A stretch of 64,000 bases of DNA from NCBI RefSeq assembly GCF_053078305.1, contig NZ_CP166879.1; one strand, given 5' to 3'. Made by a program: the position numbers and the translations under genes. Shown here piece by piece: positions 2,538 through 61,700 of this stretch. The notes below the pieces were generated by a model, which did not search any database, was not told where the DNA came from, and saw only the letters and a program-made list of their open reading frames with translations. Numbering within the stretch: position 1 is the stretch's first letter; each line of letters begins with the position of its first letter.

Positions 2538-4310
2538 TTAAAACGCGACGGCAACGCGCCAGTAAACCGTGAGATGGTCAGGGGCAAGCCAGTCCGGGTA
2601 AACAAGAGGCAGTCCGGCGGTGAACGAACCGGAAACATGACCACTGGTGGTGCTGAGCCCGGCAGCAGCACCCCACAGCGTGCCGGACGAGTACGGGTCA
2701 TCGCTGTCAGAGTGCAGCCAGCCGCCGTCCAGTGCAGTCACTGCACGGACTGTCCCCACATATGGCAGGGAGAACAGAGACCAGGACAGCTCATTTCGCA
2801 GATAACCGCCGTTATTACCGGAGATATACTGCTCCTTAAAGCCACGCACTGAACTCTCACCCCCGAGGCTCAGTTGTTCCACACCATGAAGACGGTCCGG
2901 TGACCACTGGGCATAAGCGCTGGTCAGCCACCACACCCTGTCCGTGACGGGGCGCTGAAAACTGGCGCTTAATGACCATTTCCGGAACTGATTTACGGGC
3001 AGGTCTCCCCTTTTCCCGTGGTCGCTTTCTGCGCCGAACCAGGGCATCCCCCGTGTGAATACCGGATTCAGTGTTCCGACACCCCCCAGAAACTTGTGTG
3101 TGTGATTCAGCCCGACAGAAAATGAAGTGAGTTTACGGCTGCTGCCCTGAAGCAGAACATCATCCAGATAATTGTGAATAATGCGGTGCTGCAGACCTCC
3201 GGTCAGTGCTGTCTTCATGTCCCCGTTACGGAACAGGACATGCGACAGTCCCAGCCGGTGAGTCTGCAGGTCTCCCGTGGAACGCCACCGCCAGCCCCGG
3301 TTATCAATGGTGCTGAGGTAGTCACTCCATGAATACGTGTAATCCACCAGGGTATAGCCATACGGCAGACTGACACCGGCGGCAAAATTCCTCGCATCAT
3401 GTGACACCGAAAAGTCACTGCTCCGTCCCCCGCTGACAAACCAGTTGTCAGCCAGCCCCAGCGGATTATTAAAGGAAAGGACACCATTTAACTGCCCCGT
3501 ACCGGTATTCTTCTGTCCGCTGTTGTCGATGCCCACGCTCCCTGTGACAGGCCATCCCGGCGATGCCGTCAGTGTCACCACCGACCATCCCTCACGGTCA
3601 CCGGGCGATATTTCAATCTGTACCGGCTCCGTACGCAGACGGTTAATCTGCTCCATCCCCTGCTCAATATCCCGCAGGTTCAGAACCGCCCCCTCCATTC
3701 CCGGGAAAACCATCTTCAGGGTGCGGGCAGGAAGGTCAGCGCCTTCCGCCCGGATTTGCTGCAGCCTGCCTTCCATGACCGTTATGTGCAGTACGCCCCC
3801 TGAAAGGTCCTGCTCTGTCAGAAAGGCCCGGCTGGTGATATATCCCCGACGTATATAGCCGTCCGTCACGGCATCCGTGACCGTGGTCAGCCCCGTGATA
3901 TTCAGACACTGATTCACCCACGGTGCCACCAGTCTGTCGGTTTCTGCAGACGTCAGTCGGGTGGCCCCACTGACAACAATGCGTGACACCGTAAAGCAGG
4001 GACCTTCAGTACCGGCAGACATTTCCGGAGACGGCGTGATGGTCAGCGGCGCACTGCGCTCCAGCGCATCACGCTGACGCTGGTTTTCATCCAGCAACTG
4101 CTGCTGTTGCTGCTGAATTGCACTGCGGTCACCCGGAGACAGCATGGCTGCCGGAGACGAAAATGCGGGGATAAAAAAACCAGAAAAAACGGAGAGGGAG
4201 AGATAGCATATCCACGGAGAACCGCGCCGGAACATATCACAACAGGGGACAGACAACGCACGGGATAAAAGAGACGTTTTCGTCAGAATGTTGTTCTGCC
4301 GGCGCTGCAT
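2538..4310 (-). CDS. cdiB: ShlB/FhaC/HecB-family TpsB outer-membrane transporter for CdiA
   Basis: 590-aa ORF with a Gln-rich linker (AIQQQQQQLLDENQRQRDALE), a POTRA-like region and a beta-barrel ending in an aromatic residue (...TVYWRVAVAF). N-terminus matches my memory of E. coli CdiB. Immediately upstream of cdiA. The true start may be an internal Met (MFRRGSPW...). Confidence 0.9.
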   Translation of the reverse strand: MQRRQNNILTKTSLLSRALSVPCCDMFRRGSPWICYLSLSVFSGFFIPAFSSPAAMLSPGDRSAIQQQQQQLLDENQRQRDALERSAPLTITPSPEMSAGTEGPCFTVSRIVVSGATRLTSAETDRLVAPWVNQCLNITGLTTVTDAVTDGYIRRGYITSRAFLTEQDLSGGVLHITVMEGRLQQIRAEGADLPARTLKMVFPGMEGAVLNLRDIEQGMEQINRLRTEPVQIEISPGDREGWSVVTLTASPGWPVTGSVGIDNSGQKNTGTGQLNGVLSFNNPLGLADNWFVSGGRSSDFSVSHDARNFAAGVSLPYGYTLVDYTYSWSDYLSTIDNRGWRWRSTGDLQTHRLGLSHVLFRNGDMKTALTGGLQHRIIHNYLDDVLLQGSSRKLTSFSVGLNHTHKFLGGVGTLNPVFTRGMPWFGAESDHGKRGDLPVNQFRKWSLSASFQRPVTDRVWWLTSAYAQWSPDRLHGVEQLSLGGESSVRGFKEQYISGNNGGYLRNELSWSLFSLPYVGTVRAVTALDGGWLHSDSDDPYSSGTLWGAAAGLSTTSGHVSGSFTAGLPLVYPDWLAPDHLTVYWRVAVAF

Positions 4311-5279: not shown

Positions 5280-6338
5280 ATGTACGAACAGGACACGCTC
5301 AGCGCACTGGATGCCATCACCGAAGCACAGCGGATTGCCTTTGCTCCTATGCTTTTCCAGGCAGCTTTGTGCCTGCGCAATGCAGGAATATTAGATTATT
5401 TGGATCAACAGGGTAAACAGGGAGCTCCCCTTAATGCGATTACTGAGCACACAGTCCTGAATGAATATGCCGTGGGTGTGTTACTGGATATGGGCTTAAG
5501 CGGGCGAATTATTACCTGTAAAGAGGGAATTTATTACCTGGCGAAAATCGGTCATTACCTCCTGCATGACACTATGACTCGCGTGAATATGGATTTCACC
5601 CAGGATGTCTGTTACCAGGGGCTCTTCTTCCTTGCCGATTCACTCAATGAAGGAAAACCTTCCGGGTTAAAAGTATTTGGCGACTGGCCGACGATATATC
5701 CGGCACTTTCGCAATTACCAGACGCCGCACGTGATAGCTGGTTTGCGTTTGATCATTACTATTCAGATGGCGCATTTAACGCCGCACTGCCTTATGTATT
5801 CGCCAACAACCCCACAACCTTGTACGATGTGGGTGGCAATACGGGTAAGTGGGCTTTGCGCTGCTGCAAATTCAATGAAAACATCGCCGTTACGTTATTA
5901 GATCTGCCACAACAAATCGTACTGGCGAAAGAAAATATCGCGAATGCAGGTTTTTCTGATCGCATAGATTTCCATGCGGTGGATATGCTAAGCGATGCCC
6001 CATTACCAGGCGAGGCTGATATCTGGTGGATGAGCCAATTTTTAGACTGTTTTTCACCCGAACAAATAATTAGCATACTCAGCAAAATTGCCAGCGTAAT
6101 GAAGCCTGGCGCAAAACTTTGCATCATGGAGTTGTTCTGGGATGCACAGCGGTTTGAAGCGACATCGTTTAGCCTGAATGCATCCTCACTTTATTTTACC
6201 TGCATGGCAAACGGTAACAGCCGTTTCTATAGTGCAGAGAAATTTTACGACTATCTGAATAAAGCAGGATTCCAGGTAGCAGAGCGTCACGATAATTTAG
6301 GCGTTGGGCATACACTTTTGATATGCCAAAAGAAATAA
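5280..6338 (+). CDS. apeB: SAM-dependent (O-)methyltransferase of the aryl-polyene cluster
   Basis: 352 aa; class I methyltransferase motif I LYDVGGNTGKWA. Position and size match ApeB of described APE clusters. Confidence 0.8.
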   Translation: MYEQDTLSALDAITEAQRIAFAPMLFQAALCLRNAGILDYLDQQGKQGAPLNAITEHTVLNEYAVGVLLDMGLSGRIITCKEGIYYLAKIGHYLLHDTMTRVNMDFTQDVCYQGLFFLADSLNEGKPSGLKVFGDWPTIYPALSQLPDAARDSWFAFDHYYSDGAFNAALPYVFANNPTTLYDVGGNTGKWALRCCKFNENIAVTLLDLPQQIVLAKENIANAGFSDRIDFHAVDMLSDAPLPGEADIWWMSQFLDCFSPEQIISILSKIASVMKPGAKLCIMELFWDAQRFEATSFSLNASSLYFTCMANGNSRFYSAEKFYDYLNKAGFQVAERHDNLGVGHTLLICQKK

Positions 6339-31368: not shown

Positions 31369-32059
31369 ACTACCCTCCTGATATATCAATACTTTTTATT
31401 TCCGGCATGAGCATGAAATGACTAAGTTTCCCGGATAAACAATGAGTGAAAGTCACTATCATTCATCCAGTCAACACCTTGCAAATAAAATGTAATACTA
31501 TGATTTTTATAGGTCAAAATACTGAATCGCAATGTTAAAATGGCTTTTAATAGAAAAAATAAAGACATATAGAACCAAATAAAAACAAGCCGCGACCAAT
31601 AAAAACAAAGAATTAATATTAAAAATCCATTATGACGATTTTTGTTGACTAAAATTAGGTTGGGATATATAAATAAATCCATGTAAAATTCAAACAAGGC
31701 ATGGAGGAGTCGCAGGAAGGTGAAATATTTCCATCTAATTTGTGATAATCATCACAAAAATAAGCTACAACAAGCGGAGGAAAAGACAATCTGTTGCTGA
31801 ACAGACAGAAGCAGGCTACGAATGATCGGAAAATGAAGCAAATACGCTTATACAGAAGACGCAGAGGTAACTGACGGAGACAATCACAATCAGGAGAAAA
31901 TTATCGTAAATAATGTATAAAATCTCAGGATATAAACAAATGTACACAAGCTATCCACGTAATCAGCGGCTGGCTCAGGATTAACGTTTCATTTCAGTGG
32001 ACAACATCGATTCTGTCTGACAGCGGACCAATATGTAGCAAGCAGAAACTTCTGACATC

Positions 32060-44240: not shown

Positions 44241-44272
44241 GATACAACGACTGTCTGAATATCGTGGGTCAA

Positions 44273-46276
44273 GGACAGTTTTTTCCTGCGTGTAAATCAA
44301 TAAATGCTGTTGTATCACCGAACAGAATATTTGAACTGTCTGACTGAATGTCACCTTTTACATCTGCGTTGCGACCGACAGAAAAGTCACTATTTTCAAG
44401 ATATAATGTACCGAATCTGAAAGTGCCATTTTCCCAGTCTGGCTGAGATAAATCAGATACAGTGTTACTGGTTTTATGGATATTACCACTCTGTCTTGCA
44501 ATATCTGCTTCTGTTTTCTGAATTTCGGCGACATAGTCTCTGCCACATAAGAAGCGTATTGGAGCAGGCAGTGAACAGGAGAAATTTCCATCACGGTAAA
44601 TAGCGTGTTCAGTGGCATGTCCCTGCATGGTCAGTTGTGTATTCCGCAGCCTTATATCATTTTGGATATTTATTTCACCATCGAGAATAAGACGATTATT
44701 TTCCTTTTTGGTCTCATGCTGCTGAATTATCGCCACGTTTCCATTTATTTTTCCATGATAGATATAATTAGTATTATTTTTCAGGAATAATTTTGCTTCT
44801 TTATCTGCTGTGTTTGTTATTACAGCGCCTGAATCAGTTGCAGCAATTTTATTGAAAGACTGGTCGTAACCATTCAGGTCAAGCGTACCTCCATTTCTGG
44901 TGAAGAAAATCCCGTTATACTCACCTTCGGACAGTGCTTTTTCTGCATTCAGTTTTACTGTTCCATTGCCGCCAGCCATATAGATATTATTGAAAGCATT
45001 TGTAGCACTGAGATTTACTGTACCATCCCCTGTTTTTAGATTTCCTCCCTAGGAGACCTTCACATTGAGTGTACCTGCACCTATTTTATGAAGGTTATCG
45101 TTTGTCGTGCCTTTCAGGAACCAGTCAACAGTCGAATTTTCACCAATATCAATACCTGCACCAGTATAGATAATATTATCTCCTGTGACAGTATATTTAT
45201 GTCCTTTATCAAAGACAAGTCCGCCACTACCGAGATTAAGATTACTGGTTATGTTCAGTGTTCCCCCACCATGAATAACATTATCTTTATTATTCGAGAG
45301 GGACGTCTGAGATAATTGATTTCCGTTCAGGATAATATCCTGAGAGTATTTTTTCTTTAAATTGTCAACGGTAGTCTGATTCCAGCGGTTTACTGCCGAA
45401 CGAACATTACCGTTGCCATAAATATATTCATCATAAAGAGTACCAAGCACAACCCATTTTTTCTATATTGTCATACAGCAAAAATGGCGATCCGCTGTCA
45501 CCGGAAGTTGTACGATTTCCAAACTCATCAAAAAGGTTATGTGTCGTAATATGTCCGGACCTCCAGTCATCCACGAGCACAAATGAACCATTCAGTAACT
45601 CAGGGACATATGAGACATCTTTGTAATTTATAGTCTTTCCACTTTTCTGTAGTGCCAGGTAACCAGAACCGGCTCTGAAAGCAATTAATTTCTTCTCTCC
45701 TTTAAAATTAATGCCATATCGTTCAATAGCTTGTTCCTTAGTCAGTGACGTATTTGCTCCGGAAACAATCCCTTTTGTTTCCACAACATATTTATTCAGT
45801 CGTGTGACGGCAAAGTCATTACTCGTGTTCCTGTCAACATACTTATAATTTGTTTGCCCCCATGACTGGGTGGCAATGGCATGATGCGTTATTTGATTAT
45901 GTGTCGCGGTAACACTATAAGCGCCGCCAATGGATGTGGATGCTCCTTTGTTTGATACAGGCGAAAAATCGGGGAATGGTACTTCAGGTAATCTATAAAC
46001 AGAACCATCCTTTTTTATAATAGAAATATTTTCATTACCTGCAGTAAATACGCCTTTATTCTGGGCAAAATCAAGATAATCCCGAATATAAAAATTATCA
46101 ATCCACATGTGCGATGCCATTGAGCTTGTAGCAAACAGCATTCCAGCAGGAACCACGATAACAGGTGCCAGTCTGATCTTTTTTCCTGATGCAGTAGTAA
46201 CTCTTTTGGTCAATTCAGAAACGGCAACCAGCCCCCCGGTGATTGCACTGAACTTTAGAGAATAAATTTTGTTCAT
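44273..46276 (-). pseudogene. serine protease autotransporter (SPATE) pseudogene: N-terminal ~650 codons, frameshifted, truncated by the IS2-like element
   Basis: MNKIYSLKFSAITGGLVAVSELTKRV extended signal peptide and S6 peptidase with GDSGSPFLLYD (ORF 45431-46276). It continues in two other frames (45049-45450; 44269-44979 with LTMQGHATEHAIYRDG). The beta-barrel translocator is absent. Confidence 0.85.
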
Positions 46277-46880
46277 ACCTAACTACCTGTCTCTTTTAAG
46301 CATTCAAATCAATTCAAATTCTACTGTTTACACACAGTGACCAGTAGTCAGGTAATAGTAACCATGAATTTGTTTTAATAACATATGGTTACAGTAAAAA
46401 AGCGTAAACTGAGATCCATCTGTGACCATTAAGCCAGTGTTGGTAACGCAAGTGCCCGCCTTTTCAATTCAGTTGTGGATACTTTGTTACAAAGTATCGT
46501 GAATTTGCCAGACGGTTATGGCGGGCCTTACTTCCCGCGTACTTCCCGGCTTTGTGCAAAAAAGATGATTCGGTCGGGGTTCAGACTGCGCCCGTACATT
46601 TGACTTCTTTTTTGCAGTTTTTCTGCAGAGCCATGATGGATATCTGAACATCAGCCCCTTACAGGCCTTATGGCCTTTGATGGTAGTCGTATACACCAGA
46701 TTATGCAGATATCATGTGCATCACACTCAGGTTAGCGGAATGAAAAAGTGACCGTTGATTATAGTGAGCACGTCTCCGGTATTCCGCGACGAATGTTCAC
46801 GTGGTGGCATGAACGGTCCGGAAACGTGCTCTTCTGATTTTTAACGTAAATTTGCACTAAAGGCAACTCAGATACGGCCT

Positions 46881-47456
46881 TCACCGTATACAGGAGAATG
46901 CCGTCGTGACCCGCTTCACGCCACTCACCCTACTGGCAATATCTGCTGCCGCTCGCCCTTCCTGCTCTGTAACCAGGCCCAGTAAAAAGACTTCGCTGTT
47001 TTCTGTCACCACCTTGACACTGGATGATTTGACACGGGCACTTGTGAGTAACTGAGAACGAATTTTTGTCGTGAGCCAGGCATCACCAGCCATTATGACC
47101 GGACTGACGGGAGTCCCCTGCCGGATTTCATTATAGACCTCCTTAACACCATCGACACCGAGTGCTATCTGACGGGCACGGGCAGATAATTCACGGTCCG
47201 GAGACTGACCGATCAGCAGCACGCGTCCCTGATATGCAATCTCACTGATGCGTGCTTCTTTTCTGATTTGTTCATCTTTTGAAAGTGCACTGCTGACCCT
47301 CAGCTCCAGCACTTCATCATCCACCTGCGTTCCGACACTGCGTGGGTCGGTTGCAGCCTTTGTCCCGACAGCAGCTGTACCCACCACAGCGGCAGCCACG
47401 CACCCCTGTAACAATAAGGCTGAAGTAAGGACAACAGCAGAATATAATAAACGCAT
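46881..47456 (-). CDS. DolP/YraP-like dual-BON-domain outer-membrane lipoprotein (divergent paralogue)
   Basis: 191 aa; lipobox LLQGC. CVAAAVVGTAAVGTKAATDPRSVGTQVDD... and ...AAADIASRVSGVKRVTTAF match my memory of E. coli DolP, but with many substitutions elsewhere. Confidence 0.8.
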   Translation of the reverse strand: MRLLYSAVVLTSALLLQGCVAAAVVGTAAVGTKAATDPRSVGTQVDDEVLELRVSSALSKDEQIRKEARISEIAYQGRVLLIGQSPDRELSARARQIALGVDGVKEVYNEIRQGTPVSPVIMAGDAWLTTKIRSQLLTSARVKSSSVKVVTENSEVFLLGLVTEQEGRAAADIASRVSGVKRVTTAFSCIR

Positions 47457-47731
47457 ATCTCCCCCGGAATTTATCGTACAAAAAGTTTACCTTCAGTGAA
47501 ACAAAACAAGCTACGGACTGTTATTCTCCTCCGCCCCAGCCGGAAACAGCGGATACGTTACGTGGCATATCTGTATCTGCCAGACGGAAATGTTTATGCC
47601 GGATATGGATGTACTGAAATTTAATATTGATCATGTTTTTTGCACGAAAACTTTGATATCGCCGTAAAGATTCTGTTTTTTTAACTACCTGGTTTGCTGA
47701 ACAGGATCTCCTTTTTCGTTATACACAGGCT

Positions 47732-47762
47732 AAAAGGCACCGTGGAGCCCCCGGTGCCTTTT
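47732..47762 (-). terminator. bidirectional intrinsic terminator downstream of the ydcH-like gene
   Basis: AAAAGGCACCG-N9-CGGTGCCTTTT: 11-bp stem flanked by A-run and T-run, 44 nt after the stop at 47806. Confidence 0.7.
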
Positions 47763-47805
47763 TCATAAAACAGAGAAAACACGGCTTTGAATATACCGTT
47801 TATGA

Positions 47806-48033
47806 TTACCGTTCGCCCTTTTCTGACTCATCTTCAAGGAGTTTCTGGATTTCTCTTTTGATCTCAAGTTTTTCAAGCTTCAGCCTGACCACTTTCGTCG
47901 AATACGCTGAACCAAACTCATCTTCAATTCTTTTTATTTCGTGATCAAGTTTATTATGCTTTTCAAATAAAGAATCAAAGCGTTTATGATTTCCTTTCAA
48001 TGCTGAAATCAGTTCTCTGTACTCCGGGAACAT
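47806..48033 (-). CDS. YdcH-family (DUF465) small protein
   Basis: 75 aa; MFPEYRELISALKGNHKRFDSLFEKHNKLDHEI...VVRLKLEKLEIKREI parallels E. coli YdcH. Confidence 0.8.
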   Translation of the reverse strand: MFPEYRELISALKGNHKRFDSLFEKHNKLDHEIKRIEDEFGSAYSTKVVRLKLEKLEIKREIQKLLEDESEKGER

Positions 48034-48150
48034 TGTTTTTATCTCCTTTCAACAACACTGTAACAACAAATATAAACATTAATATTATTAAAGATTCTCA
48101 CCATCAGTATTCGCAGTGAATAATGCAGCGTCTCATATTCATACCCTGCA

Positions 48151-48322
48151 GAGAAAACCCCTCCGAAGAGGGGCGAGTGTAGCGTAATGGAGTGTTATGT
48201 AGCATGGTGCCGGGTGCCTCCCGGTGAGTTCAGTATCAGCACCTGAACCCGCACAGATAAGGGATGTGACCAAACACCTACGATACTGATATGCCCCGCC
48301 GCTCAGGGGGATTCACCATGCA
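48151..48322 (-). ncRNA. candidate structured sRNA, copy 1 (unrecognised family)
   Basis: Minus strand: promoter-like TTGTCG (48352-48357), 17-nt spacer, TTAAAA (48329-48334). 5' GCAUGGUG (48321-48314) pairs with CACCAUGC (48209-48202). Internal hairpins. Terminator CCCCUC-UUCG-GAGGGG (48173-48158) plus UUUUCUC. Confidence 0.45.
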
Positions 48323-48610
48323 TTATTTTTTTAACAAATATCCCGTAAGACCGACAATAATCCACTGACTGAACTGTGAAGTATTTAACATTTACCGATA
48401 AAAAGCTGCAGCTGCAGTGGAAAAATACGAAATCACATCATGCCCGATTGCTGACTCGCATCCTGCCAATCGAACGTCGGGCGAACAACTGATCGAATAC
48501 ATCGGAATCCGCAGACAAAAAGCACTGCAGTCTCACGACTGTGCGTTATATATGTCAGCGCCTGTAATATAAGACGGTAATGGGGTCAAAAATCGTGGCG
48601 TTGGCATATA

Positions 48611-48770
48611 CAAAACAAAACGCCCCTCCGTAGAGGGGCTGACGCTGCGTATCTGTATCATCATGCGCATGGTGCCGGGTGCCTCCCGGTGAACAAACCG
48701 TTCGTGATACCAGTCAGCAACATAGGAAATTAATGGTATCACCCCACCGCACAGGGGGATTCACCATGCC
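48611..48770 (-). ncRNA. candidate structured sRNA, copy 2 (paralogue of copy 1)
   Basis: Same architecture as copy 1: TTGTCC (48800-48805), 17-nt spacer, CTAAAA (48777-48782). Closing stem 48769-48762 / 48674-48667. Central stem 48704-48712 / 48734-48742. Terminator GCCCCUC-UACG-GAGGGGC (48639-48622) plus GUUUUGUUUUG. Confidence 0.45.
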
Positions 48771-49171
48771 TGCCTTTTTTAGCAAATTCATCAGAAACCG
48801 GACAACATGCTTATTTATGAAATGAGGTGCTTTTCACATTTATATAAAATCATTATAACGATAATCCTAAAAATCAATGTAATTATCATCTTCAGTAACT
48901 TTCTGTATTACACCATACGGAAATTGATTTTTGACGGTAAAGATACAAGGGGAAGTATGTCTGTAAGGAGTACCCTGAATAATGGACAGGCATGCATCGT
49001 GGCTGTTCCCCTGAAATTATCAGTACAACCAGTCAGCTCATAATCCCTGTCTCTTTTTCCGGGGAGCCCTCAGGGGGACTTTCCCTTATCCCCCCAGTTT
49101 CTGGAGAGACGTAAAAAAGAATTAATCATATGTCAGGTATCTGAATATGTCCCGTAATTAATATATTTACG

Positions 49172-50263
49172 TCAGGATTTTTTCTGCCCGCCAGGAGTAT
49201 GAACATCTTCCGCCGTTGAGTCTGTCATATCCATTTTTTTCTGTGCCAGTACTTCATCTGATTTTTCTTTTTCCAGACTCTCCTGCTGCATCCCGTGAGC
49301 CGGAGCATATACAAGCTCAGCCATCACTGGAAAATGATCTGAACCCATATCCGGTAAACGGCGTAAACTTTTAAGCAGAAAATGCTGGCTGTGAAATACA
49401 TGGTCAAGCGGCCATCGCAGGAAAAAATAATGGCTGTGAAACGTGCTAAAAAAACCACGTCCCCGGCGTGGATTCAGCAGTCCACTTATTTTCATGAATA
49501 AACGAGTGGTCGCAGACCACGCAACATCATTCAGATCCCCCGCTAATATTACAGGTAATTCAGAATCTGCAACACTTTTCCCGACCATTAAAAGTTCTGA
49601 GTCACGATCAGTTGACTCATCACTTTCAGTCGGGCTCGGTGGAACAGGATGAAAACAATGTAATCTTATTCTCTGACCTTCCGGCATATGAACTATCATA
49701 TGCATGGAGGGAATTTCCTTGTCCACTAAATACTGTATTTCTGCATCACTTAAAATCATCCTTGAATATACATGCATGCCATATAAATTTTCTTTCGGGC
49801 ATTTCAGGGAGTATGGAAACACTTCATCCAGAGGTGATAGTTTCTGTTCCCACCATAAGTTTGTTTCAAGAAGAACAAGTATATCAGGTTTTTCTTTATT
49901 TATAAGTTCAAGCAAAGGCATATATTTTTTATTGGTCATAAGGACATTGAATACCAGTATACTTAAACCCGGAAATCCATCAGAGTCCTTTATTTCCTTT
50001 ACCTGCTTCTTGCCAATTACTGTATAAGGAATTATCCATACCAACTGGTAAGCGACACAAATTAAACTTATTATCACAACAAACAACTCTGCAAATGAGT
50101 CAAGAAAAACAACAGACAGAAAAACATTCAAAGTACACAGCAAAAGTATCTGTAGTCGGGGAAAATCCCATACCCTGACAACCCATGATGTATTACCGGA
50201 AACAGGGATAAAAGTTATGACTGCCAGAAGGATAGCAGTAAAAATAAAAACACAAGTTATCAC
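49172..50263 (-). CDS. membrane-anchored endonuclease/exonuclease/phosphatase (EEP) family protein
   Basis: 363 aa. Three N-terminal TM helices, then EEP-fold blocks (ILVFNVLMTN, DILVLLETN, ILAGDLNDVAWS, GSDHFPV). Confidence 0.75.
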   Translation of the reverse strand: MITCVFIFTAILLAVITFIPVSGNTSWVVRVWDFPRLQILLLCTLNVFLSVVFLDSFAELFVVIISLICVAYQLVWIIPYTVIGKKQVKEIKDSDGFPGLSILVFNVLMTNKKYMPLLELINKEKPDILVLLETNLWWEQKLSPLDEVFPYSLKCPKENLYGMHVYSRMILSDAEIQYLVDKEIPSMHMIVHMPEGQRIRLHCFHPVPPSPTESDESTDRDSELLMVGKSVADSELPVILAGDLNDVAWSATTRLFMKISGLLNPRRGRGFFSTFHSHYFFLRWPLDHVFHSQHFLLKSLRRLPDMGSDHFPVMAELVYAPAHGMQQESLEKEKSDEVLAQKKMDMTDSTAEDVHTPGGQKKS

Positions 50264-50433
50264 AAATCACTCCTTGTTCTGAACCGGCACACAAAACTGT
50301 CATATACGTTTCAAAAGTAAAAACACACTGCTGCCACAAGATTCACGACGTAACCGGGCAGCATATCCTGATTACGGACAATCCATGAAACCGCCTCGCC
50401 AGAAGCGTCCATCACATCCGGTTTTTCCCTGTT

Positions 50434-50529
50434 TTATATTCCACGAACCATTTTATTTTCAGGAATCTCCGGGCCTTTATCCCGCATCATATACACAGCT
50501 ATGACAACCCGCTCTTCTGCAGTCATCAT
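50434..50529 (-). CDS. possible 31-aa ORF translationally coupled to the upstream small membrane protein
   Basis: ATGA overlap with the stop of 50526-50714; MMTAEERVVIAVYMMRDKGPEIPENKMVRGI*. Below the ORF-track threshold; no other support. Confidence 0.25.
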   Translation of the reverse strand: MMTAEERVVIAVYMMRDKGPEIPENKMVRGI

Positions 50530-50714
50530 TTCCCCGTGGCTTCGCGGATTTTCTGTTCCGTCTTATACTGCGAAAGCGCATACACAGCCCATATTGTTGC
50601 CGGTATCCAGCCCAGCAGCGTTATCTGTAACACCAGACAAAAAATCCCCGTCAGAGGCCGGCCAATGGTGAAAAAAGTCAGCCAGGGAAGAAGAAAAGCA
50701 ATCAACAGACGCAT
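50526..50714 (-). CDS. small two-TM membrane protein (Pmp3/YqaE-like or superinfection-immunity-like)
   Basis: 62 aa; two hydrophobic helices with LLGWIPATIWAVYAL, resembling the LLGYIPG..HA.Y motif of Pmp3/YqaE proteolipids. Confidence 0.55.
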   Translation of the reverse strand: MRLLIAFLLPWLTFFTIGRPLTGIFCLVLQITLLGWIPATIWAVYALSQYKTEQKIREATGK

Positions 50715-50788
50715 AAAAACTCCTTATGATTATGAAATTAACGAATCAGAGGCTGCGTTTAACATTACCGGAAATAAGCTGTCCTGCT

Positions 50789-51304
50789 TCACAACCTCCC
50801 TTTTCTGACCAGAAGCATCCCCTTGTACAACAACTCAACTTCATTATGTACCCGTAACCTCTTTATCAGATTCTGCTTATGAGTGGAGAATGTTTTCTCT
50901 GACATGCCAAGATATCGTGCCCCCTCTGTTCCGTTACTGCCATAAAGCAGCATCATCAGTACATTTACCTGCCGGCCTGACAGGGTCAGCTTCTCCACCG
51001 ACATGAATGCGCGGTACAGATGACTGATATCGTTTACTGAACATCGCTCAGTAAGATGTCTGATATCATAAACCGGACTGTCAACCACTCCCCAGAGAAA
51101 ACGGAGCGCTTCCGGAGAAGAAAAATAAAGGGTGTTCGTATCACTTATATTATTCTTATACAGAAAGCCGACAATTTCAGATATCCGGGAAGAAGATATT
51201 ATCACCACATTATCTGTCTGCATGCCGCTGATAATGAATTTACCGGGATTAATATACTCCTTCACTCCCTCCAGAAAATAACTGTTATCACAAATAAAAC
51301 GCAT
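50789..51304 (-). CDS. LuxR/GerE-type HTH transcriptional regulator
   Basis: 171 aa; C-terminal LSGRQVNVLMMLLYGSNGTEGARYLGMSEKTFSTHKQNLIKRLRV. No receiver-domain phospho-acceptor pattern noticed. Confidence 0.75.
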   Translation of the reverse strand: MRFICDNSYFLEGVKEYINPGKFIISGMQTDNVVIISSSRISEIVGFLYKNNISDTNTLYFSSPEALRFLWGVVDSPVYDIRHLTERCSVNDISHLYRAFMSVEKLTLSGRQVNVLMMLLYGSNGTEGARYLGMSEKTFSTHKQNLIKRLRVHNEVELLYKGMLLVRKGRL

Positions 51305-51427
51305 ACCCGTTCCACATGAAATTTATCACGCCTGACCACATAACATTAATTATCCGGAGCACCGGGATGCCCGTGACACAGCATGCACAGAAATTCCCGT
51401 CGCAACAGCCTTCATCAGACCGGCTTT

Positions 51428-51904
51428 TTACCGGTCTGCGGTGCTGCAGAGATATTTAACACTGACACCTCGCAGACCATTTTTCTCCATCGCATTGTAA
51501 AGATGCGCACATACCGTCTTCATGCTTATCCCCAGCTGGTCTGCCAGAAAGGTACAGCCGTACTCATGGAAAATAACCCCGAAGACCACCACCATCTCGG
51601 TACGGGTCAGTGGTCTTGCCGTATGTCCGAACAACCACGCACCACGACGGATGGCCTGCCTGATATCTGTCAGGCATCTCACAGAGGAAACAGGAATGAC
51701 AAGAAAACGACGCCCACAGAACATACAGTATGTAAGCCTTTCCAGATTACGGTCACAGAGAATCACATAACTGTCTTCGGGAAGTGGCAGACGGCGCTTT
51801 CCGGCATCAAACAGTTCACGGCCTGTCGTGAGCCTGTATCCGTTCAGCATACGCATCAGGCCATATTCCAGATATCTGTCACGGGTCATAATAATAATCT
51901 GCAT
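51428..51904 (-). CDS. LuxR/GerE-type HTH transcriptional regulator (second)
   Basis: 158 aa; C-terminal LTRTEMVVVFGVIFHEYGCTFLADQLGISMKTVCAHLYNAMEKNGL. Confidence 0.7.
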   Translation of the reverse strand: MQIIIMTRDRYLEYGLMRMLNGYRLTTGRELFDAGKRRLPLPEDSYVILCDRNLERLTYCMFCGRRFLVIPVSSVRCLTDIRQAIRRGAWLFGHTARPLTRTEMVVVFGVIFHEYGCTFLADQLGISMKTVCAHLYNAMEKNGLRGVSVKYLCSTADR

Positions 51905-51966
51905 ACTCTCAGACCCTTATCTCCCGGATACCGGCTCCGTTCACCATTACCGGTATAACTGACTCA

Positions 51967-52179
51967 TCATTCATAACGGAAACTGTCTGCCGCATACATC
52001 AGTGCCCGCTCTTCCAGCTCTGACAGACTCAGCTCTTTCAGTTCCCCTTCTCCTTCAGCAAGAAGACAACATTCAAAAACAGCTGCATCGTCGCATTCCA
52101 GACGAACCTGCACCCTGTCAGCCCGACCGTTTACAGTAAATACCTGCACTGAACTTATGCGATAGTTCAGCATATACAC
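51967..52179 (-). CDS. hypothetical 70-aa acidic protein
   Basis: ORF fills the gap between the TAA gene and the LuxR gene on the same strand. No motif. Confidence 0.35.
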   Translation of the reverse strand: MYMLNYRISSVQVFTVNGRADRVQVRLECDDAAVFECCLLAEGEGELKELSLSELEERALMYAADSFRYE

Positions 52180-52300
52180 TCTCCCTCTCAGCTCCTCAGG
52201 AATACCCCGGAACCGTCAGTCATGCCACCGGGGAGAAAAGCAGGCAGCGAATCATGACCGCATACAGAACGCTGCCCGCCCCGGTGACTCAGACCCGGGT

Positions 52301-53503
52301 TCAGAACTCCCAGTTGACACCCACATTCCAGGAAACATCACCGTCACTGAACGCAGTACCTGCCTTTGCCGCAGCCTGTTCGTTAAAGCGATATCCCATG
52401 CCCACCGCAACAGCCTGCTTGTCACTGTACCCGCCCACTGCCGCTGTGGCGTTAAATTTACCCACACTGTATGGCTGGAAAAGACCGGCCAGCGCTGCTG
52501 ACTGGGCTGCTGCCCGCTTCATTTCCTCATGATTCTCATTAATCTGACGCTGCTGACTGTTCATACGACGCTCATGCGCCTGCAGGGTACGTGCCTGAGA
52601 AGCAATGGCGCGACTGTTGCGTTCACCCACCTGACGGTTACGGCTTACCGCAGCACGGTTTTCTGTGGCCATTTCCTGTGTACGTACCAGCCCTTCCTGT
52701 ACAGTAATTCGTTCACCGGTTCCCTCACCGCGCGTCACATAACCATGACTGTCCACAGCAACGGTACTTCCGGTATTTATCTGCTGTTGCTGGCTGTTCA
52801 GGCGCTCTTCATGCGTCTCCAGCACGTCTCTCTGGGAAAGCAGCCCCCTGGTGTTACGGTTTATGGCCACCGTGTTCCGGATAATATTCTCCCTGTTCTC
52901 TGCAGCAACCGTATCGGTATGGTCACGCGCCTTAAGTGCTTCCGCTGCAATCCGTCCACTGACGTCACTGTACACCTCATCCGCCTTCCGGTTCAGTTGC
53001 CCGACAGTGGCTGCATCCGTATCCCGTGTACCATCACTGACACCACCGAGAACCCGGGTTTTATCCGGTACACGCGGACTGGCCGGGTTTGTGACACCTG
53101 AGTCATATCCGATGTAGACTTCATTTTCACGGGTTGTACCGGACTGCTGACCAAGAGCCACTGAATACCTGTGCATTGCCTGTGCACCCGTACCCAGTGC
53201 TACTGAATTTAAAGCATCTGCAGATGCCCAGCTACCTACTGCCACACCATTAGACGCCTCCGGATTTACATAAGCAGACATCCCCACGGATGTGGAAAAC
53301 GGCGCATGCGCATACGATGCAGAGCCAAGAGCTGTCCCTGCCTTCCCGGCATTCGCCCATGCCCCCACTGCCGTGGAGTCAGTCTCTGATGCAGAGGCTG
53401 TGTCCGGAGACGCCCAGGAACTGCCATCCTGCGCAAACGCCGGAGCACCGGCAATCAGAAAGGAAATAAGCGATAAAGTAATACCGTGTCGATTTATTTT
53501 CAT
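52301..53503 (-). CDS. trimeric autotransporter adhesin (YadA/Eib-like)
   Basis: ATG 53503 (GAGG RBS). Signal peptide [24 protein letters not shown], head repeats (SVALG, AVGxxA), a coiled-coil stalk, and a YadA anchor ...[42 protein letters not shown]...WNVGVNWEF. Confidence 0.85.
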
Positions 53504-55797: not shown

Positions 55798-58700
55798 TTA
55801 CACTACATTAGTGATTCTCTCATCAATCAGAACCTGTACATCAGGAACCGAAGCATGTGTATAAATGTTATAAGTGATATCCCCTTCAGACTCAGTGCTT
55901 CCTTTAATCCAGTTATACCCATTGTCACTGAGGTTATCCCCGTTATTACCGAGGTCAACCCGAGAACTACCATCACCTGTGACTTTGAGTTTATTACCCT
56001 CTATAGAGGCAGAATTTAAATTCTCAGCCAACAAATTCAGTGCAGCTCCATCTTTCAGTTCAATCTTCTCAAAACCAGAGAATGTGTTGCTTGTGGCATT
56101 ACCCTGATGAATAACCAAGGTATCAAATCCAGAACCACCTTTAATATTTGAAGCATTATCAATATTAGCCACAATATCGATTACATCATTACCAGCACCT
56201 AAATCCAAGGTTGATGATTTGAGCGCAGCAAGAGAATTACCTCCTAACAATAACAGGCTGTCATTTCCATCTTCCATAGTAACAGTCGTTTTCTCTATAA
56301 AACCACCATTATTTGGGTATCCCGAATCATTATCAGGTATTATGATATCTCCATCCAGTCGTTGATACTTAGCGGTTTCTTCAATGCGGTAAGAACCATC
56401 CTTCCCATATACGACATCATAACCGCCTCGACCAAAACCAACTATCAGGATATCATCACCGATACCTGTATTTACCTCGGTCCATAGATCACTATATCCA
56501 ATCCCCAAATCACGACCAGTCACGATGGTATCGTCACCTGCACCAGTATCGACAACCATTGGTCTTACCCAGCGAGAAACGCCCAGATTCCCCAGTGACA
56601 GTTCAGTCGTAATTATATTATCCCCCTCTGTCATTTCCAGTAGAGCGACGTTATTAGCACCATTCTTACTTATTACATAAACATTTGTCCCTACATTTGC
56701 CTCATGAGCCTTAATGGCCAAGAATGATTTAGAATCTTTTTGTAAATCATCATCAGCGATTTTGACCTTTTGACCTGAGCCAGCTGTAACTCCATGACCT
56801 TGCGTCATGTTTACATTACCTGTATAGATAACGGTTCCAATCCGATCTATTGCATCCGGCTTGCCGTTGCCGTTTTCATCCACTGCCGGTACATCGATAC
56901 CGTCAACTTTAGCCAGACGCCCGTTCAGACCGTCCTTCGCATCTCCGGCCGGCAGACCTTCCACCGCTTTCGCCGCATCTGCTTTCGCCGCCGTTACCGC
57001 ATCGTTCTTCGCCGCAAGATCATCATGCTCCTGCTGGGTGATCTTATTGTCAGCCTTCGCCTGAGTCAGCGCCGCTTCTGCTTCTTTTTCCTTCGCTTCC
57101 GCTTCTGCTACCTTGGCTGTCGCTGCATTCACCGCCTCTGCTGCTTCCTCTGCATCCGGCTTGCCGTTGCCGTTTTCATCCACTGCCGGTACATCGATAC
57201 CGTCAACTTTAGCCAGACGCCCGTTCAGACCGTCCTTCGCATCTCCGGCCGGCAGACCTTCCACCGCTTTCGCCGCATCTGCTTTCGCCGCCGTTACCGC
57301 ATCGTTCTTCGCCGCAAGATCATCATGCTCCTGCTGGGTGATCTTATTGTCAGCCTTCGCCTGAGTCAGCGCCGCTTCTGCTTCTTTTTCCTTCGCTTCC
57401 GCTTCTGCTACCTTGGCTGTCGCTGCATTCACCGCCTCTGCTGCTTCCTCTGCATCCGGCTTGCCGTTGCCGTTTTCATCCACTGCCGGTACATCGATAC
57501 CGTCAACTTTAGCCAGACGCCCGTTCAGACCGTCCTTCGCATCTCCGGCCGGCAGACCTTCCACCGCTTTCGCCGCATCTGCTTTCGCCGCCGTTACCGC
57601 ATCGTTCTTCGCCGCAAGATCATCATGCTCCTGCTGGGTGATCTTATTGTCAGCCTTCGCCTGAGTCAGCGCCGCTTCTGCTTCTTTTTCCTTCGCTTCC
57701 GCTTCTGCTACCTTGGCTGTCGCTGCATTCACCGCCTCTGCTGCTTCCTCTGCATCCGGCTTGCCGTTGCCGTTTTCATCCACTGCCGGTACATCGATAC
57801 CGTCAACTTTAGCCAGACGCCCGTTCAGACCGTCCTTCGCATCTCCGGCCGGCAGACCTTCCACCGCTTTCGCCGCATCTGCTTTCGCCGCCGTTACCGC
57901 ATCGTTCTTCGCCGCAAGATCATCATGCTCCTGCTGGGTGATCTTATTGTCAGCCTTCGCCTGAGTCAGCGCCGCTTCTGCTTCTTTTTCCTTCGCTTCC
58001 GCTTCTGCTACCTTGGCTGTCGCTGCATTCACCGCCTCTGCTGCTTCCTCTGCATCCGGCTTGCCGTTGCCGTTTTCATCCACTGCCGGTACATCGATAC
58101 CGTCAACTTTAGCCAGACGCCCGTTCAGACCGTCCTTCGCATCTCCGGCCGGCAGACCTTCCACCGCTTTCGCCGCATCTGCTTTCGCCGCCGTTACCGC
58201 ATCGTTCTTCGCCGCAAGATCATCATGCTCCTGCTGGGTGATCTTATTGTCAGCCTTCGCCTGAGTCAGCGCCGCTTCTGCTTCTTTTTCCTTCGCTTCC
58301 GCTTCTGCTACCTTGGCTGTCGCTGCATTCACCGCCTCTGCTGCTTCCTCTGCATCCGGCTTGCCGTTGCCGTTTTCATCCACTGCCGGTACATCGATAC
58401 CGTCAACTTTAGCCAGACGCCCGTTCAGACCGTCCTTCGCATCTCCGGCCGGCAGACCTTCCACCGCTTTCGCCGCATCTGCTTTCGCCGCCGTTACCGC
58501 ATCGTTCTTCGCCGCAAGATCATCATGCTCCTGCTGGGTGATCTTATTGTCAGCCTTCGCCTGAGTCAGCGCCGCTTCTGCTTCTTTTTCCTTCGCTTCC
58601 GCTTCTGCTACCTTGGCTGTCGCTGCATTCACCGCCTCTGCTGCTTCCTCTGCATCCGGCTTGCCGTTGCCGTTTTCATCCACTGCCGGTACATCGATAC

Positions 58701-61700
58701 CGTCAACTTTAGCCAGACGCCCGTTCAGACCGTCCTTCGCATCTCCGGCCGGCAGACCTTCCACCGCTTTCGCCGCATCTGCTTTCGCCGCCGTTACCGC
58801 ATCGTTCTTCGCCGCAAGATCATCATGCTCCTGCTGGGTGATCTTATTGTCAGCCTTCGCCTGAGTCAGCGCCGCTTCTGCTTCTTTTTCCTTCGCTTCC
58901 GCTTCTGCTACCTTGGCTGTCGCTGCATTCACCGCCTCTGCTGCTTCCTCTGCATCCGGCTTGCCGTTGCCGTTTTCATCCACTGCCGGTACATCGATAC
59001 CGTCAACTTTAGCCAGACGCCCGTTCAGACCGTCCTTCGCATCTCCGGCCGGCAGACCTTCCACCGCTTTCGCCGCATCTGCTTTCGCCGCCGTTACCGC
59101 ATCGTTCTTCGCCGCAAGATCATCATGCTCCTGCTGGGTGATCTTATTGTCAGCCTTCGCCTGAGTCAGCGCCGCTTCTGCTTCTTTTTCCTTCGCTTCC
59201 GCTTCTGCTACCTTGGCTGTCGCTGCATTCACCGCCTCTGCTGCTTCCTCTGCATCCGGCTTGCCGTTGCCGTTTTCATCCACTGCCGGTACATCGATAC
59301 CGTCAACTTTAGCCAGACGCCCGTTCAGACCGTCCTTCGCATCTCCGGCCGGCAGACCTTCCACCGCTTTCGCCGCATCTGCTTTCGCCGCCGTTACCGC
59401 ATCGTTCTTCGCCGCAAGATCATCATGCTCCTGCTGGGTGATCTTATTGTCAGCCTTCGCCTGAGTCAGCGCCGCTTCTGCTTCTTTTTCCTTCGCTTCC
59501 GCTTCTGCTACCTTGGCTGTCGCTGCATTCACCGCCTCTGCTGCTTCCTCTGCATCCGGCTTGCCGTTGCCGTTTTCATCCACTGCCGGTACATCGATAC
59601 CGTCAACTTTAGCCAGACGCCCGTTCAGACCGTCCTTCGCATCTCCGGCCGGCAGACCTTCCACCGCTTTCGCCGCATCTGCTTTCGCCGCCGTTACCGC
59701 ATCGTTCTTCGCCGCAAGATCATCATGCTCCTGCTGGGTGATCTTATTGTCAGCCTTCGCCTGAGTCAGCGCCGCTTCTGCTTCTTTTTCCTTCGCTTCC
59801 GCTTCTGCTACCTTGGCTGTCGCTGCATTCACCGCCTCTGCTGCTTCCTCTGCATCCGGCTTGCCGTTGCCGTTTTCATCCACTGCCGGTACATCGATAC
59901 CGTCAACTTTAGCCAGACGCCCGTTCAGACCGTCCTTCGCATCTCCGGCCGGCAGACCTTCCACCGCTTTCGCCGCATCTGCTTTCGCCGCCGTTACCGC
60001 ATCGTTCTTCGCCGCAAGATCATCATGCTCCTGCTGGGTGATCTTATTGTCAGCCTTCGCCTGAGTCAGCGCCGCTTCTGCTTCTTTTTCCTTCGCTTCC
60101 GCTTCTGCTACCTTGGCTGTCGCTGCATTCACCGCCTCTGCTGCTTCCTCTGCATCCGGCTTGCCGTTGCCGTTTTCATCCACTGCCGGTACATCGATAC
60201 CGTCAACTTTAGCCAGACGCCCGTTCAGACCGTCCTTCGCATCTCCGGCCGGCAGACCTTCCACCGCTTTCGCCGCATCTGCTTTCGCCGCCGTTACCGC
60301 ATCGTTCTTCGCCGCAAGATCATCATGCTCCTGCTGGGTGATCTTATTGTCAGCCTTCGCCTGAGTCAGCGCCGCTTCTGCTTCTTTTTCCTTCGCTTCC
60401 GCTTCTGCTACCTTGGCTGTCGCTGCATTCACCGCCTCTGCTGCTTCCTCTGCATCCGGCTTGCCGTTGCCGTTTTCATCCACTGCCGGTACATCGATAC
60501 CGTCAACTTTAGCCAGACGCCCGTTCAGACCGTCCTTCGCATCTCCGGCCGGCAGACCTTCCACCGCTTTCGCCGCATCTGCTTTCGCCGCCGTTACCGC
60601 ATCGTTCTTCGCCGCAAGATCATCATGCTCCTGCTGGGTGATCTTATTGTCAGCCTTCGCCTGAGTCAGCGCCGCTTCTGCTTCTTTTTCCTTCGCTTCC
60701 GCTTCTGCTACCTTGGCTGTCGCTGCATTCACCGCCTCTGCTGCTTCCTCTGCATCCGGCTTGCCGTTGCCGTTTTCATCCACTGCCGGTACATCGATAC
60801 CGTCAACTTTAGCCAGACGCCCGTTCAGACCGTCCTTCGCATCTCCGGCCGGCAGACCTTCCACCGCTTTCGCCGCATCTGCTTTCGCCGCCGTTACCGC
60901 ATCGTTCTTCGCCGCAAGATCATCATGCTCCTGCTGGGTGATCTTATTGTCAGCCTTCGCCTGAGTCAGCGCCGCTTCTGCTTCTTTTTCCTTCGCTTCC
61001 GCTTCTGCTACCTTGGCTGTCGCTGCATTCACCGCCTCTGCTGCTTCCTCTGCATCCGGCTTGCCGTTGCCGTTTTCATCCACTGCCGGTACATCGATAC
61101 CGTCAACTTTAGCCAGACGCCCGTTCAGACCGTCCTTCGCATCTCCGGCCGGCAGACCTTCCACCGCTTTCGCCGCATCTGCTTTCGCCGCCGTTACCGC
61201 ATCGTTCTTCGCCGCAAGATCATCATGCTCCTGCTGGGTGATCTTATTGTCAGCCTTCGCCTGAGTCAGCGCCGCTTCTGCTTCTTTTTCCTTCGCTTCC
61301 GCTTCTGCTACCTTGGCTGTCGCTGCATTCACCGCCTCTGCTGCTTCCTCTGCATCCGGCTTGCCGTTGCCGTTTTCATCCACTGCCGGTACATCGATAC
61401 CGTCAACTTTAGCCAGACGCCCGTTCAGACCGTCCTTCGCATCTCCGGCCGGCAGACCTTCCACCGCTTTCGCCGCATCTGCTTTCGCCGCCGTTACCGC
61501 ATCGTTCTTCGCCGCAAGATCATCATGCTCCTGCTGGGTGATCTTATTGTCAGCCTTCGCCTGAGTCAGCGCCGCTTCTGCTTCTTTTTCCTTCGCTTCC
61601 GCTTCTGCTACCTTGGCTGTCGCTGCATTCACCGCCTCTGCTGCTTCCTCTGCATCCGGCTTGCCGTTGCCGTTTTCATCCACTGCCGGTACATCGATAC

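Follow-up and report, generated by a model that had tools for sequence, protein, structure and literature searches.

Two adjacent STnc100 small RNA genes in an adhesin island, and a covarying pseudoknot in their family

What kind of RNA, if any, is made from two similar units that lie one behind the other on the minus strand, between positions 48148 and 48805 of a 64,000-nucleotide stretch of contig NZ_CP166879.1 (NCBI RefSeq assembly GCF_053078305.1; the whole stretch is called the window below)? A first-pass annotation, made from the letters alone, described two paralogous units of the small RNA (sRNA) type, each with its own promoter, structured core and intrinsic terminator, and stated that they match no known family. 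The description was right and the statement about the family was wrong. Both units are unannotated, paralogous genes of STnc100 (RF02076), a known multi-copy family of sRNAs from prophages and islands in E. coli and Salmonella. Indeed, the find is an ordinary one at this locus, as STnc100 is already catalogued and partly studied, and as a new RNA family the units have no significance, since any Rfam-based annotation labels both of them STnc100. The new points concern the family, not the locus: a pseudoknot, a split into scaffold and modules, a CRP-like site and a recombinant single-copy form.

A scan of the whole window against Rfam gave exactly two matches at gathering thresholds, both of them to STnc100:

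48148..48350, minus strand: copy 1, STnc100 model positions 1-206, 136.8 bits, E 5e-30
48610..48798, minus strand: copy 2, STnc100 model positions 1-206, 98.4 bits, E 4e-20

Both copies exceed the family's curated gathering score of 47 bits, with full-length, untruncated matches; the resemblance is far beyond chance. The closing stem (P1), P2, P4 and the terminator hairpin of the STnc100 consensus are found in both copies. The 8-bp P3 hairpin of the consensus (GGRUUCAG/CUGAAYUC) is present in copy 1; copy 2 has a 4-bp GAAC/GUUC hairpin and a nested helix, a form seen in other members that match Rfam (our loci L100 and L128:3247), and its alignment holds 5 nt in place of 18 P3 model positions. 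The model also takes in about 29 nt of the copy 1 promoter. A permissive Rfam scan of both strands of 47600-49400 gave nothing further that is credible: there was no match to AsxR or AgvB, and no toxin-antitoxin RNA family scored even at E up to 10. A tRNA or tmRNA identity was considered and rejected, the units being recognised neither by ARAGORN, which found no tRNA gene in the window, nor by the Rfam tRNA model.

For comparison within the family we collected relatives by scanning viral contigs for exact matches to the 5' 16-mer of the units, which gave 120 loci (numbered with an L), and extracted 83 distinct 200-nt units from these and from a few genome and phage loci. The same 16-mer gave mostly chance matches in 596 Gb of genome contigs, with only three real loci among them. 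A covariance model built from a 41-sequence alignment then recovered 126 copies in 100 sources, and gives the core of copy 1 (48201-48321) 112.3 bits and that of copy 2 (48666-48769) 78.4 bits.

The five parts that had been described for each unit are all present on the minus strand in 48148-48860. The distance of 465 bp given for the two units holds for their terminators; copy 2 being the shorter one, the distance between the 5' ends is 448 bp. Outside the core, the parts are as follows.

48328..48357, minus strand: copy 1 promoter, -35 TTGTCG at 48357-48352, extended -10 TGTTAAAAA at 48336-48328
48776..48805, minus strand: copy 2 promoter, -35 TTGTCC at 48805-48800, extended -10 TGCTAAAAA at 48784-48776
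48175..48201, minus strand: copy 1 single-stranded 3' linker UACAUAACACUCCAUUACGCUACACUC, candidate seed region
48150..48174, minus strand: copy 1 intrinsic terminator, GCCCCUC-UUCG-GAGGGGU then UUUCUCU; hairpin called at 48174-48157
48612..48639, minus strand: copy 2 intrinsic terminator, GCCCCUC-UACG-GAGGGGC then GUUUUGUUUU; hairpin called at 48639-48622
48351..48609, minus strand: spacer between the copies, free of further STnc100 copies; one additional terminator-like hairpin, 48541-48528

Both promoters have the extended -10 element TGnTAAAAA, whose end is separated by 6 nt from the G of GCAUGG, and transcription would start at G48321 in copy 1 and at G48769 in copy 2. The same layout (TTGTCn, about 18 nt, TGnTAAAAA and a start 7 nt further on) is kept in about 50 distinct upstream variants of the relatives, which supports the promoter-like block of the earlier description and puts the RNA's 5' end at the G of GCAUGG. 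A generic promoter scan did not call the copy 1 promoter because its -10 box is TAAAAA. As had been described, an 18-nt 5' block GCAUGGUGAAUCCCCCUG and a 26-nt 3' block UCACCGGGAGGCACCCGGCACCAUGC are identical between the copies; the latter contains a 5-bp CCGGG/CCCGG hairpin and forms the 8-bp closing stem GCAUGGUG/CACCAUGC with the 5' end of the RNA. The terminator scan confirmed that both hairpins with UNCG loops are called on the minus strand only, and found 7 terminator-like sites in 1.6 kb, compared with 1.1 expected from shuffles. Promoter, blocks, closing stem and minus-only terminators are kept in about 60 relatives. The copy 1 linker is largely unpaired in the minimum free energy (MFE) fold and entirely unpaired in the centroid, and this 3' linker module varies between family members; it may serve as the seed region. 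The extra hairpin in the spacer (48528-48541, minus strand) reads CAGTCGTGAGACTG followed by a T run; some other small transcript could have its 3' end there.

How are the cores folded? The elements are, all on the minus strand:

48202..48321, minus strand: copy 1 structured core, with P1 48321-48314/48209-48202, P2 48309-48305/48298-48294, P3 48250-48243/48233-48226 and P4 48224-48220/48214-48210
48667..48769, minus strand: copy 2 structured core, with P1 48769-48762/48674-48667, P2 48757-48753/48746-48742 and P4 48689-48685/48679-48675
48691..48742, minus strand: copy 2 central elements, nested helix 48742-48734/48712-48704 and GAAC/GUUC hairpin 48703-48700/48694-48691
48285..48291, minus strand: copy 1 pseudoknot 5' strand UAUCAGU, pairing with the P3 loop, duplex -9.2 kcal/mol
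48234..48240, minus strand: copy 1 pseudoknot 3' strand GCUGAUA, part of the 9-nt loop of P3, GUGCUGAUA

In the predicted folds both cores form the same junction. In the 41-sequence alignment 92-99% of the cells of P1, P2 and P4 are paired, with little variation, and the P3 hairpin of copy 1 (GGGUUCAG/CUGAACUC) is backed by the relatives, with 96.7% of cells paired and 4 pairs changed on both sides; RNAalifold gives the same helices.

The claim of a covarying central hairpin stands in part. The arms that had been noted are indeed complementary in both copies (UCAGUAUC/GAUACUGA in copy 1, GUGAUACCA/UGGUAUCAC in copy 2), and the 9-bp stem of copy 2 is found in its MFE and centroid folds and is invariant among its few relatives, a rarer structural type that we know also from L186, besides the two loci mentioned above. 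The 8-bp stem of copy 1, on the contrary, is missing from the MFE fold and would need P3 to be broken; across the 41 relatives 68% of its cells are paired, a value reached by 383 of 500 shuffles. The covariation lies elsewhere, in a pseudoknot that the P3 loop forms with the strand immediately 3' of P2, and this pairing uses the same 5' nucleotides as the rejected stem of copy 1. When the 5' strand and the P3 loop strand are read across the relatives, the following classes appear:

AUCAGC with GCUGAU or GCUGGU, in many relatives
CUGGUG with CACCGG, CACCAG or UACCAG, in many relatives
AAUGAC with GUCAUU, in L128:2992
CUGGC with GCCAG, in L241
CUGGCU with AGCCAG, in L189
UAUCAGUAC with GUACUGAUA, in L185

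Three classes are added by divergent copies (CUGAUU/AAUCAG, CAGUUAA/UUAACUG and AUCGG/CCGGU). All 6 pairs of the pseudoknot are changed on both sides, even in the imperfect register of the MAFFT alignment. The linker from P2 to the 5' strand is 2-5 nt long, and neither MAFFT nor the covariance model put all classes in one register; we therefore rely on a test that needs no register, in which the duplex energy of each 5' strand with its own loop is compared with that for loops of other classes. The means are -9.08 and -3.00 kcal/mol, and the median energy of the matched pairs is reached by 0 of 682 cross-class pairs and by 1% of shuffled own loops. Judged by this covariation, a conserved pseudoknot changes in step on both strands through at least seven sequence classes. 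In most classes the P3 loop consists of 2 unpaired, 6 paired and 1 unpaired nucleotides, which is the geometry of known kissing loops. The pseudoknot is absent from the Rfam consensus of STnc100, and it is not mentioned in a 2026 preprint (bioRxiv 10.64898/2026.05.13.724894). A model of the family that includes it, and that distinguishes an invariant scaffold from swappable modules, thus goes beyond both Rfam and the literature cited here.

The structure is kept even where the sequence is not. On phage contigs arrays are common, with two, three and up to four or five consecutive units, and some middle copies score weakly and are highly divergent with the structure preserved. In L131 a third copy of 28.8 bits (3374-3479) lies between two strong ones, and the same is seen in L139, L146, L151, L158, L187 and L196, so that these phage "tandems" of about 467 bp are really triplets. 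The third copies keep the closing stem, P2, P4 and the pseudoknot by compensatory changes; for P1 the divergent copies have AUAUGGCG/CGCCAUAU, AUGCGGUG/CACCGCAU and AUGUGAUG/CAUCACAU, and P2 and P4 show compensatory changes as well.

A further feature, upstream of the promoters, concerns regulation:

48375..48390, minus strand: CRP-like site of copy 1, TGTTAAATACTTCACA, 9/10 half-site bases, centre at -61.5
48823..48838, minus strand: CRP-like site of copy 2, TGTGAAAAGCACCTCA, 8/10 half-site bases, centre at -61.5

The position -61.5 is that of class I CRP-dependent promoters such as lac. At least 8 of the 10 half-site bases occur at the same position in 35 of the 62 distinct upstream variants of the relatives (loci L125-L244). 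The 64-kb window holds 28 CRP-like sites with two mismatches or fewer, which is about chance level, and the argument rests for this reason on the fixed position and the conservation. Together these suggest class I activation of the family by cyclic AMP (cAMP) and CRP, and the site offers a regulatory input that can be tested. The sole site in the window without a mismatch, a perfect consensus half-site pair TGTGATAATCATCACA, is at 31741-31756.

What, then, would these genes do? In our opinion it is probable that they produce two independently transcribed, Hfq-dependent, trans-acting sRNAs of the STnc100 family. Each unit would be transcribed from a sigma-70 promoter of the extended -10 type, perhaps with the help of cAMP-CRP bound at -61.5, into an RNA of about 160-175 nt that begins with GCAUGG and is ended by the intrinsic terminator. 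In the folded RNA the 8-bp stem would close a junction of several helices, with the P2 hairpin CCCCU...AGGGG, the P4 hairpin CCGGG-AGGCA-CCCGG directly abutting the closing stem, and a variable module between P2 and P4. In copy 1 this module would be the family-typical P3, with its 9-nt loop paired to the strand 3' of P2; in copy 2 the same 5' strand would be engaged in the nested 9-bp helix beside the short hairpin. A single-stranded linker, the terminator hairpin and the U tail would follow the core. By analogy with the relatives the RNAs would bind Hfq and pair in trans with mRNAs or other sRNAs; if the central module and the 3' linker set the range of targets, the two copies should differ in theirs.

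The analogy draws on several reports. The first listing of STnc100 was in Salmonella; it belongs to the sRNAs annotated most often in bacterial genomes, with the function column left blank (PMC9029176). Of the 11 copies in E. coli O157:H7 EDL933 the majority are transcribed, and a northern blot confirmed one of them (PMC5331693). In enterohaemorrhagic E. coli (EHEC), the copy immediately downstream of stx2B overlaps EcOnc27 (sRNA103), an Hfq-binding sRNA that was found bound to Hfq by cross-linking and analysis of cDNA (CRAC). EcOnc27 is visible in northern analysis, and its overexpression increases the transcripts of fimZ and espA (PMC12711010, PMC7873438). PasD1 and PasD2 of enteropathogenic E. 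coli (EPEC) depend on Hfq for stability and have many partners in RIL-seq (a method that ligates and sequences interacting RNAs; PMC8550237). Transcription, Hfq binding and the effects on fimZ and espA are thus known for relatives only (PMC5331693, PMC7873438, PMC8550237, PMC12711010), and for the two copies of the window, and for this strain, expression, Hfq dependence, action by base pairing and control by CRP are what we would expect from them.

Several points weigh against the action that we propose. Besides the dependence on relatives just described, the core is unusually structured and invariant in sequence for a base-pairing sRNA. The z-score of the copy 1 fold, a calculation that cannot include the pseudoknot, is only -1.4. 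The terminator tail of copy 1 has only four consecutive U, and termination and Hfq binding may be weaker there. Targets of the family are largely unvalidated: the effects on fimZ and espA come from overexpression (PMC7873438), and in a review the fimZ interaction is given as predicted in silico only and no interaction is given for espA. Finally, one study reported that a few of the EDL933 copies have ribosome-footprint ratios above 1 (PMC5331693). Regarding the last point, our comparison across relatives found no conserved open reading frame (ORF) on either strand of the units. On the sense strand the ORF from the AUG at +3 ranges from 11 to 73 aa among relatives, and the one from the conserved GGAGG...AUG in P4/P1 runs through the terminator with no stop in the transcript. 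Nothing in these sequences supports translation of the units, and we reject it.

The main rival, which we consider unlikely, is that the conserved pseudoknotted junction is itself the functional part: it would bind a protein or mimic a tRNA-like substrate, Hfq would be incidental, and the RNA might act as a decoy, as a processing signal or as a factor for the phage late operon. The architecture is cloverleaf-like, with the 8-bp closing stem, a joint of 3 nt, a hairpin, a variable arm, 1 nt and the abutting 5-bp hairpin, and the compensatory changes keep it in very divergent copies. The setting in phages fits too: the genes lie downstream of tRNA genes (directly after ileZ-argN-argO, often as arrays) and, in Stx2 phages, of stx2AB, and where flanks are annotated they lie between the gene for antiterminator Q and the lysis genes. 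No direct target of the family is validated (PMC7873438). The failure of ARAGORN and of the Rfam tRNA model to recognise the units speaks against mimicry of tRNA, however, and each unit has the 3' end of a typical sRNA. Relatives have been recovered with Hfq and with many RNA partners (PMC7873438, PMC8550237), and no protein partner is consistently encoded nearby, the neighbours differing between loci.

A further reading of the family seems to us rather doubtful. STnc100 RNAs may be modular scaffolds instead of sRNAs with a linear seed, an invariant cloverleaf-like junction presenting a hypervariable "address". As tentative as the scaffold itself is the identification of that address with the 9-nt loop (2-6-1), masked by a complementary strand of the same RNA and existing in at least seven classes. 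If true, arrays with different addresses, possibly switched by cAMP-CRP, would supply phages and islands with a set of regulators or decoys whose addresses differ, and the pseudoknotted copy 1 and the copy 2 with its nested pairing would represent two states of the address module.

Returning to the preferred reading, of trans-acting sRNAs, one has to ask whether the units could act in cis on the genes that follow them. These are:

47806..48033, minus strand: DUF465 gene (Pfam)
46881..47456, minus strand: gene for a BON-domain lipoprotein, dolP-like (Pfam)

The units would then be leaders or attenuators, with structure-controlled read-through of weak terminators into the DUF465 and BON-lipoprotein genes. 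All are on the minus strand, the U tail of copy 1 is short, and from the copy 1 terminator to the start codon of DUF465 the generic scan called no minus-strand promoter; the 114-nt AT-rich gap there could nevertheless hold a promoter missed by such a crude scan. The order of STnc100, DUF465 and dolP-like gene, all on one strand, recurs in two other islands (L245, L246), but since this is the same mobile module, the recurrence is not independent evidence. In phages the genes downstream are wholly different (an esterase, CP-933V proteins or tRNA), and relatives accumulate as discrete short RNAs (PMC5331693, PMC7873438, PMC8550237). We think it very improbable that the units are leaders.

Equally improbable, in our view, is that the copies are decaying or selfish repeats, moron remnants kept by recombination and gene conversion and of no function to the host. 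The family does have features of this kind. Among the 83 units there is hardly any variation in the 5' block, in P4 and in the closing stem, while the centre and the stretch from closing stem to terminator each exist as several unrelated modules in different combinations, which makes STnc100 a mosaic family whose cores, linkers and terminators are shuffled between copies. Degenerate copies are known (L129:1554, L069:1463). The 751-bp tandem of the window is 100% identical to a segment of E. coli Z1323MEC0001; of 5,426 complete E. coli genomes only 2 have the whole of it, and parts of it are matched in 1,210. At least six other E. coli genomes have one chimeric unit at the same position of the island (for example JNEC-KY202; L246:2960-3330 against window 48130-48860), in which the promoter and core of copy 2 are joined to the linker and terminator of copy 1, the junction lying inside the shared 26-nt block. 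Read from the sequences, this is the product expected of recombination between two direct repeats, and it would show module exchange at work. Against a lack of function stand the intact promoter, helices and terminator of both copies, the compensatory changes throughout the family, which show selection on the RNA structure, and the expression and Hfq binding of relatives (PMC5331693, PMC7873438, PMC8550237).

Hardly credible, finally, is the type I toxin-antitoxin arrangement that the first-pass annotation had offered as an alternative, in which the minus-strand RNAs would be antitoxins covering the ribosome binding sites of tiny plus-strand toxin ORFs, as in Ibs/Sib: AGGGGGA does lie 6 nt before a plus-strand ATG in the closing stem of both copies, and the 16- and 19-aa peptides with FF(N/S)K that had been reported (MHYFFNKYPVRPTIIH and MPAFFSKFIRNRTTCLFMK) were reproduced, but the ORF that begins at this ATG is 2-68 aa long in relatives (no more than 2-5 aa in over 30 copies), the common FFNK motif is just the complement of the -10 box TTAAAAA of the sRNA itself, neither peptide is hydrophobic, the region gives no score with any toxin-antitoxin RNA family, and no plus-strand terminator-like site bounds the ORFs, the two plus-strand calls being elsewhere (48012-48031 and 48526-48543).

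How does the window compare with systems that are already known? With STnc100, including EcOnc27/sRNA103, it shares the full model, the promoter layout, the closing stem, P2, P4 and the terminator, copy 1 also P3, as well as the multi-copy occurrence in horizontally acquired DNA. The differences are the nested 9-bp helix and short hairpin that copy 2 has in place of P3 and pseudoknot, and the setting in an adhesin and autotransporter island that is not a prophage. The locus is not a lambdoid late region. Prophage-associated STnc100 thus also travels in a non-phage adhesin island, here as a tandem of two very different members. Unlike the dyads with the anti-sRNAs AsxR or AgvB, the locus has no convergent AsxR or AgvB partner in the permissive Rfam scan, and no plus-strand terminator was called at the hairpin of either unit. 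Such a dyad of Stx phages is seen on the phage contig L187, where AsxR (5872-5924, plus strand) is convergent with and adjoins STnc100 (5928-6137, minus strand).

PasD1 and PasD2 of EPEC E2348/69 are Hfq-dependent and intergenic in prophages, and a preprint states that PasD is a structural homologue of STnc100, which it regards as a marker of phage-derived DNA (bioRxiv 10.64898/2026.05.13.724894). [quoted passage not shown] Sib/Ibs loci resemble the window in being short tandem repeats of sRNA genes with a small ORF on the opposite strand; the opposite ORF of the window is neither conserved nor hydrophobic, its motif comes from the sRNA promoter, and the RNA is a structured junction. Enterobacterial repetitive intergenic consensus (ERIC) elements, or intergenic repeat units (IRU), are multi-copy intergenic elements of enterobacteria as well, and the 10-mer GTGAATCCCC is one that we take to be common to them and to STnc100 units. 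The STnc100 unit differs in being covered end to end by another model, in having its own promoter and terminator, and in not being a long imperfect palindrome, which the ERIC element is, with a length of roughly 127 bp.

Two further reports bear on why the family matters. In a machine-learning study, sequence variants in the region downstream of stx2B had predictive value for haemolytic uraemic syndrome (PMC12711010), and a correct model of structure and promoter could aid the interpretation of variants in this stx2-adjacent member. A copy of STnc100 was found in outer-membrane vesicles, with a proposed pairing to stxB that its authors call hypothetical (PMC12370729).

The pair in the window, judging by its spacer, is not one of the phage arrays. 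The 260-bp spacer has no homology to them and is rare, being found in about three E. coli genomes. It holds no third copy: with filters off, the best extra matches were a partial one of 14.4 bits over the copy 1 terminator (48097-48173) and one of 12 bits that overlaps the copy 2 terminator (48526-48648).

Judged from Pfam domains, the surroundings are an adhesin and autotransporter island that insertion sequences interrupt. From low to high coordinates it consists of IS110 and IS3 transposases, fragments of a serine-protease autotransporter, the BON-domain lipoprotein, DUF465 and both sRNA genes, followed by an endonuclease/exonuclease/phosphatase (EEP-family) protein, a LuxR-type regulator, a YadA-like adhesin and an RTX protein. 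The nearest gene on the far side of copy 2 is:

49172..50263: EEP-family gene (Pfam)

RefSeq annotates no gene between the DUF465 and EEP-family genes in the identical segment, in agreement with the earlier remark that there are no credible genes around the units. The window and Z1323MEC0001 have only about 7 kb in common (about 46195-53165), and a tRNA-Phe island setting by collinearity with that genome was dropped because the match is limited to this interval. The idea that the DUF465 gene is phage cargo was abandoned also, its protein having no match in the phage collection.

At 44269-46276 two adjoining minus-strand ORFs are pieces of a serine-protease autotransporter, one with ESPR and Peptidase_S6 and one with the beta-solenoid repeat, and the IS3 and IS110 transposase genes adjoin them; this looks like a disrupted gene of the SPATE class (serine-protease autotransporters of Enterobacteriaceae). 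At 55798-62871, downstream of the RTX-repeat protein and the YadA-like adhesin, a minus-strand ORF of 2,357 aa carries the RefSeq label of a beta-strand-repeat protein.

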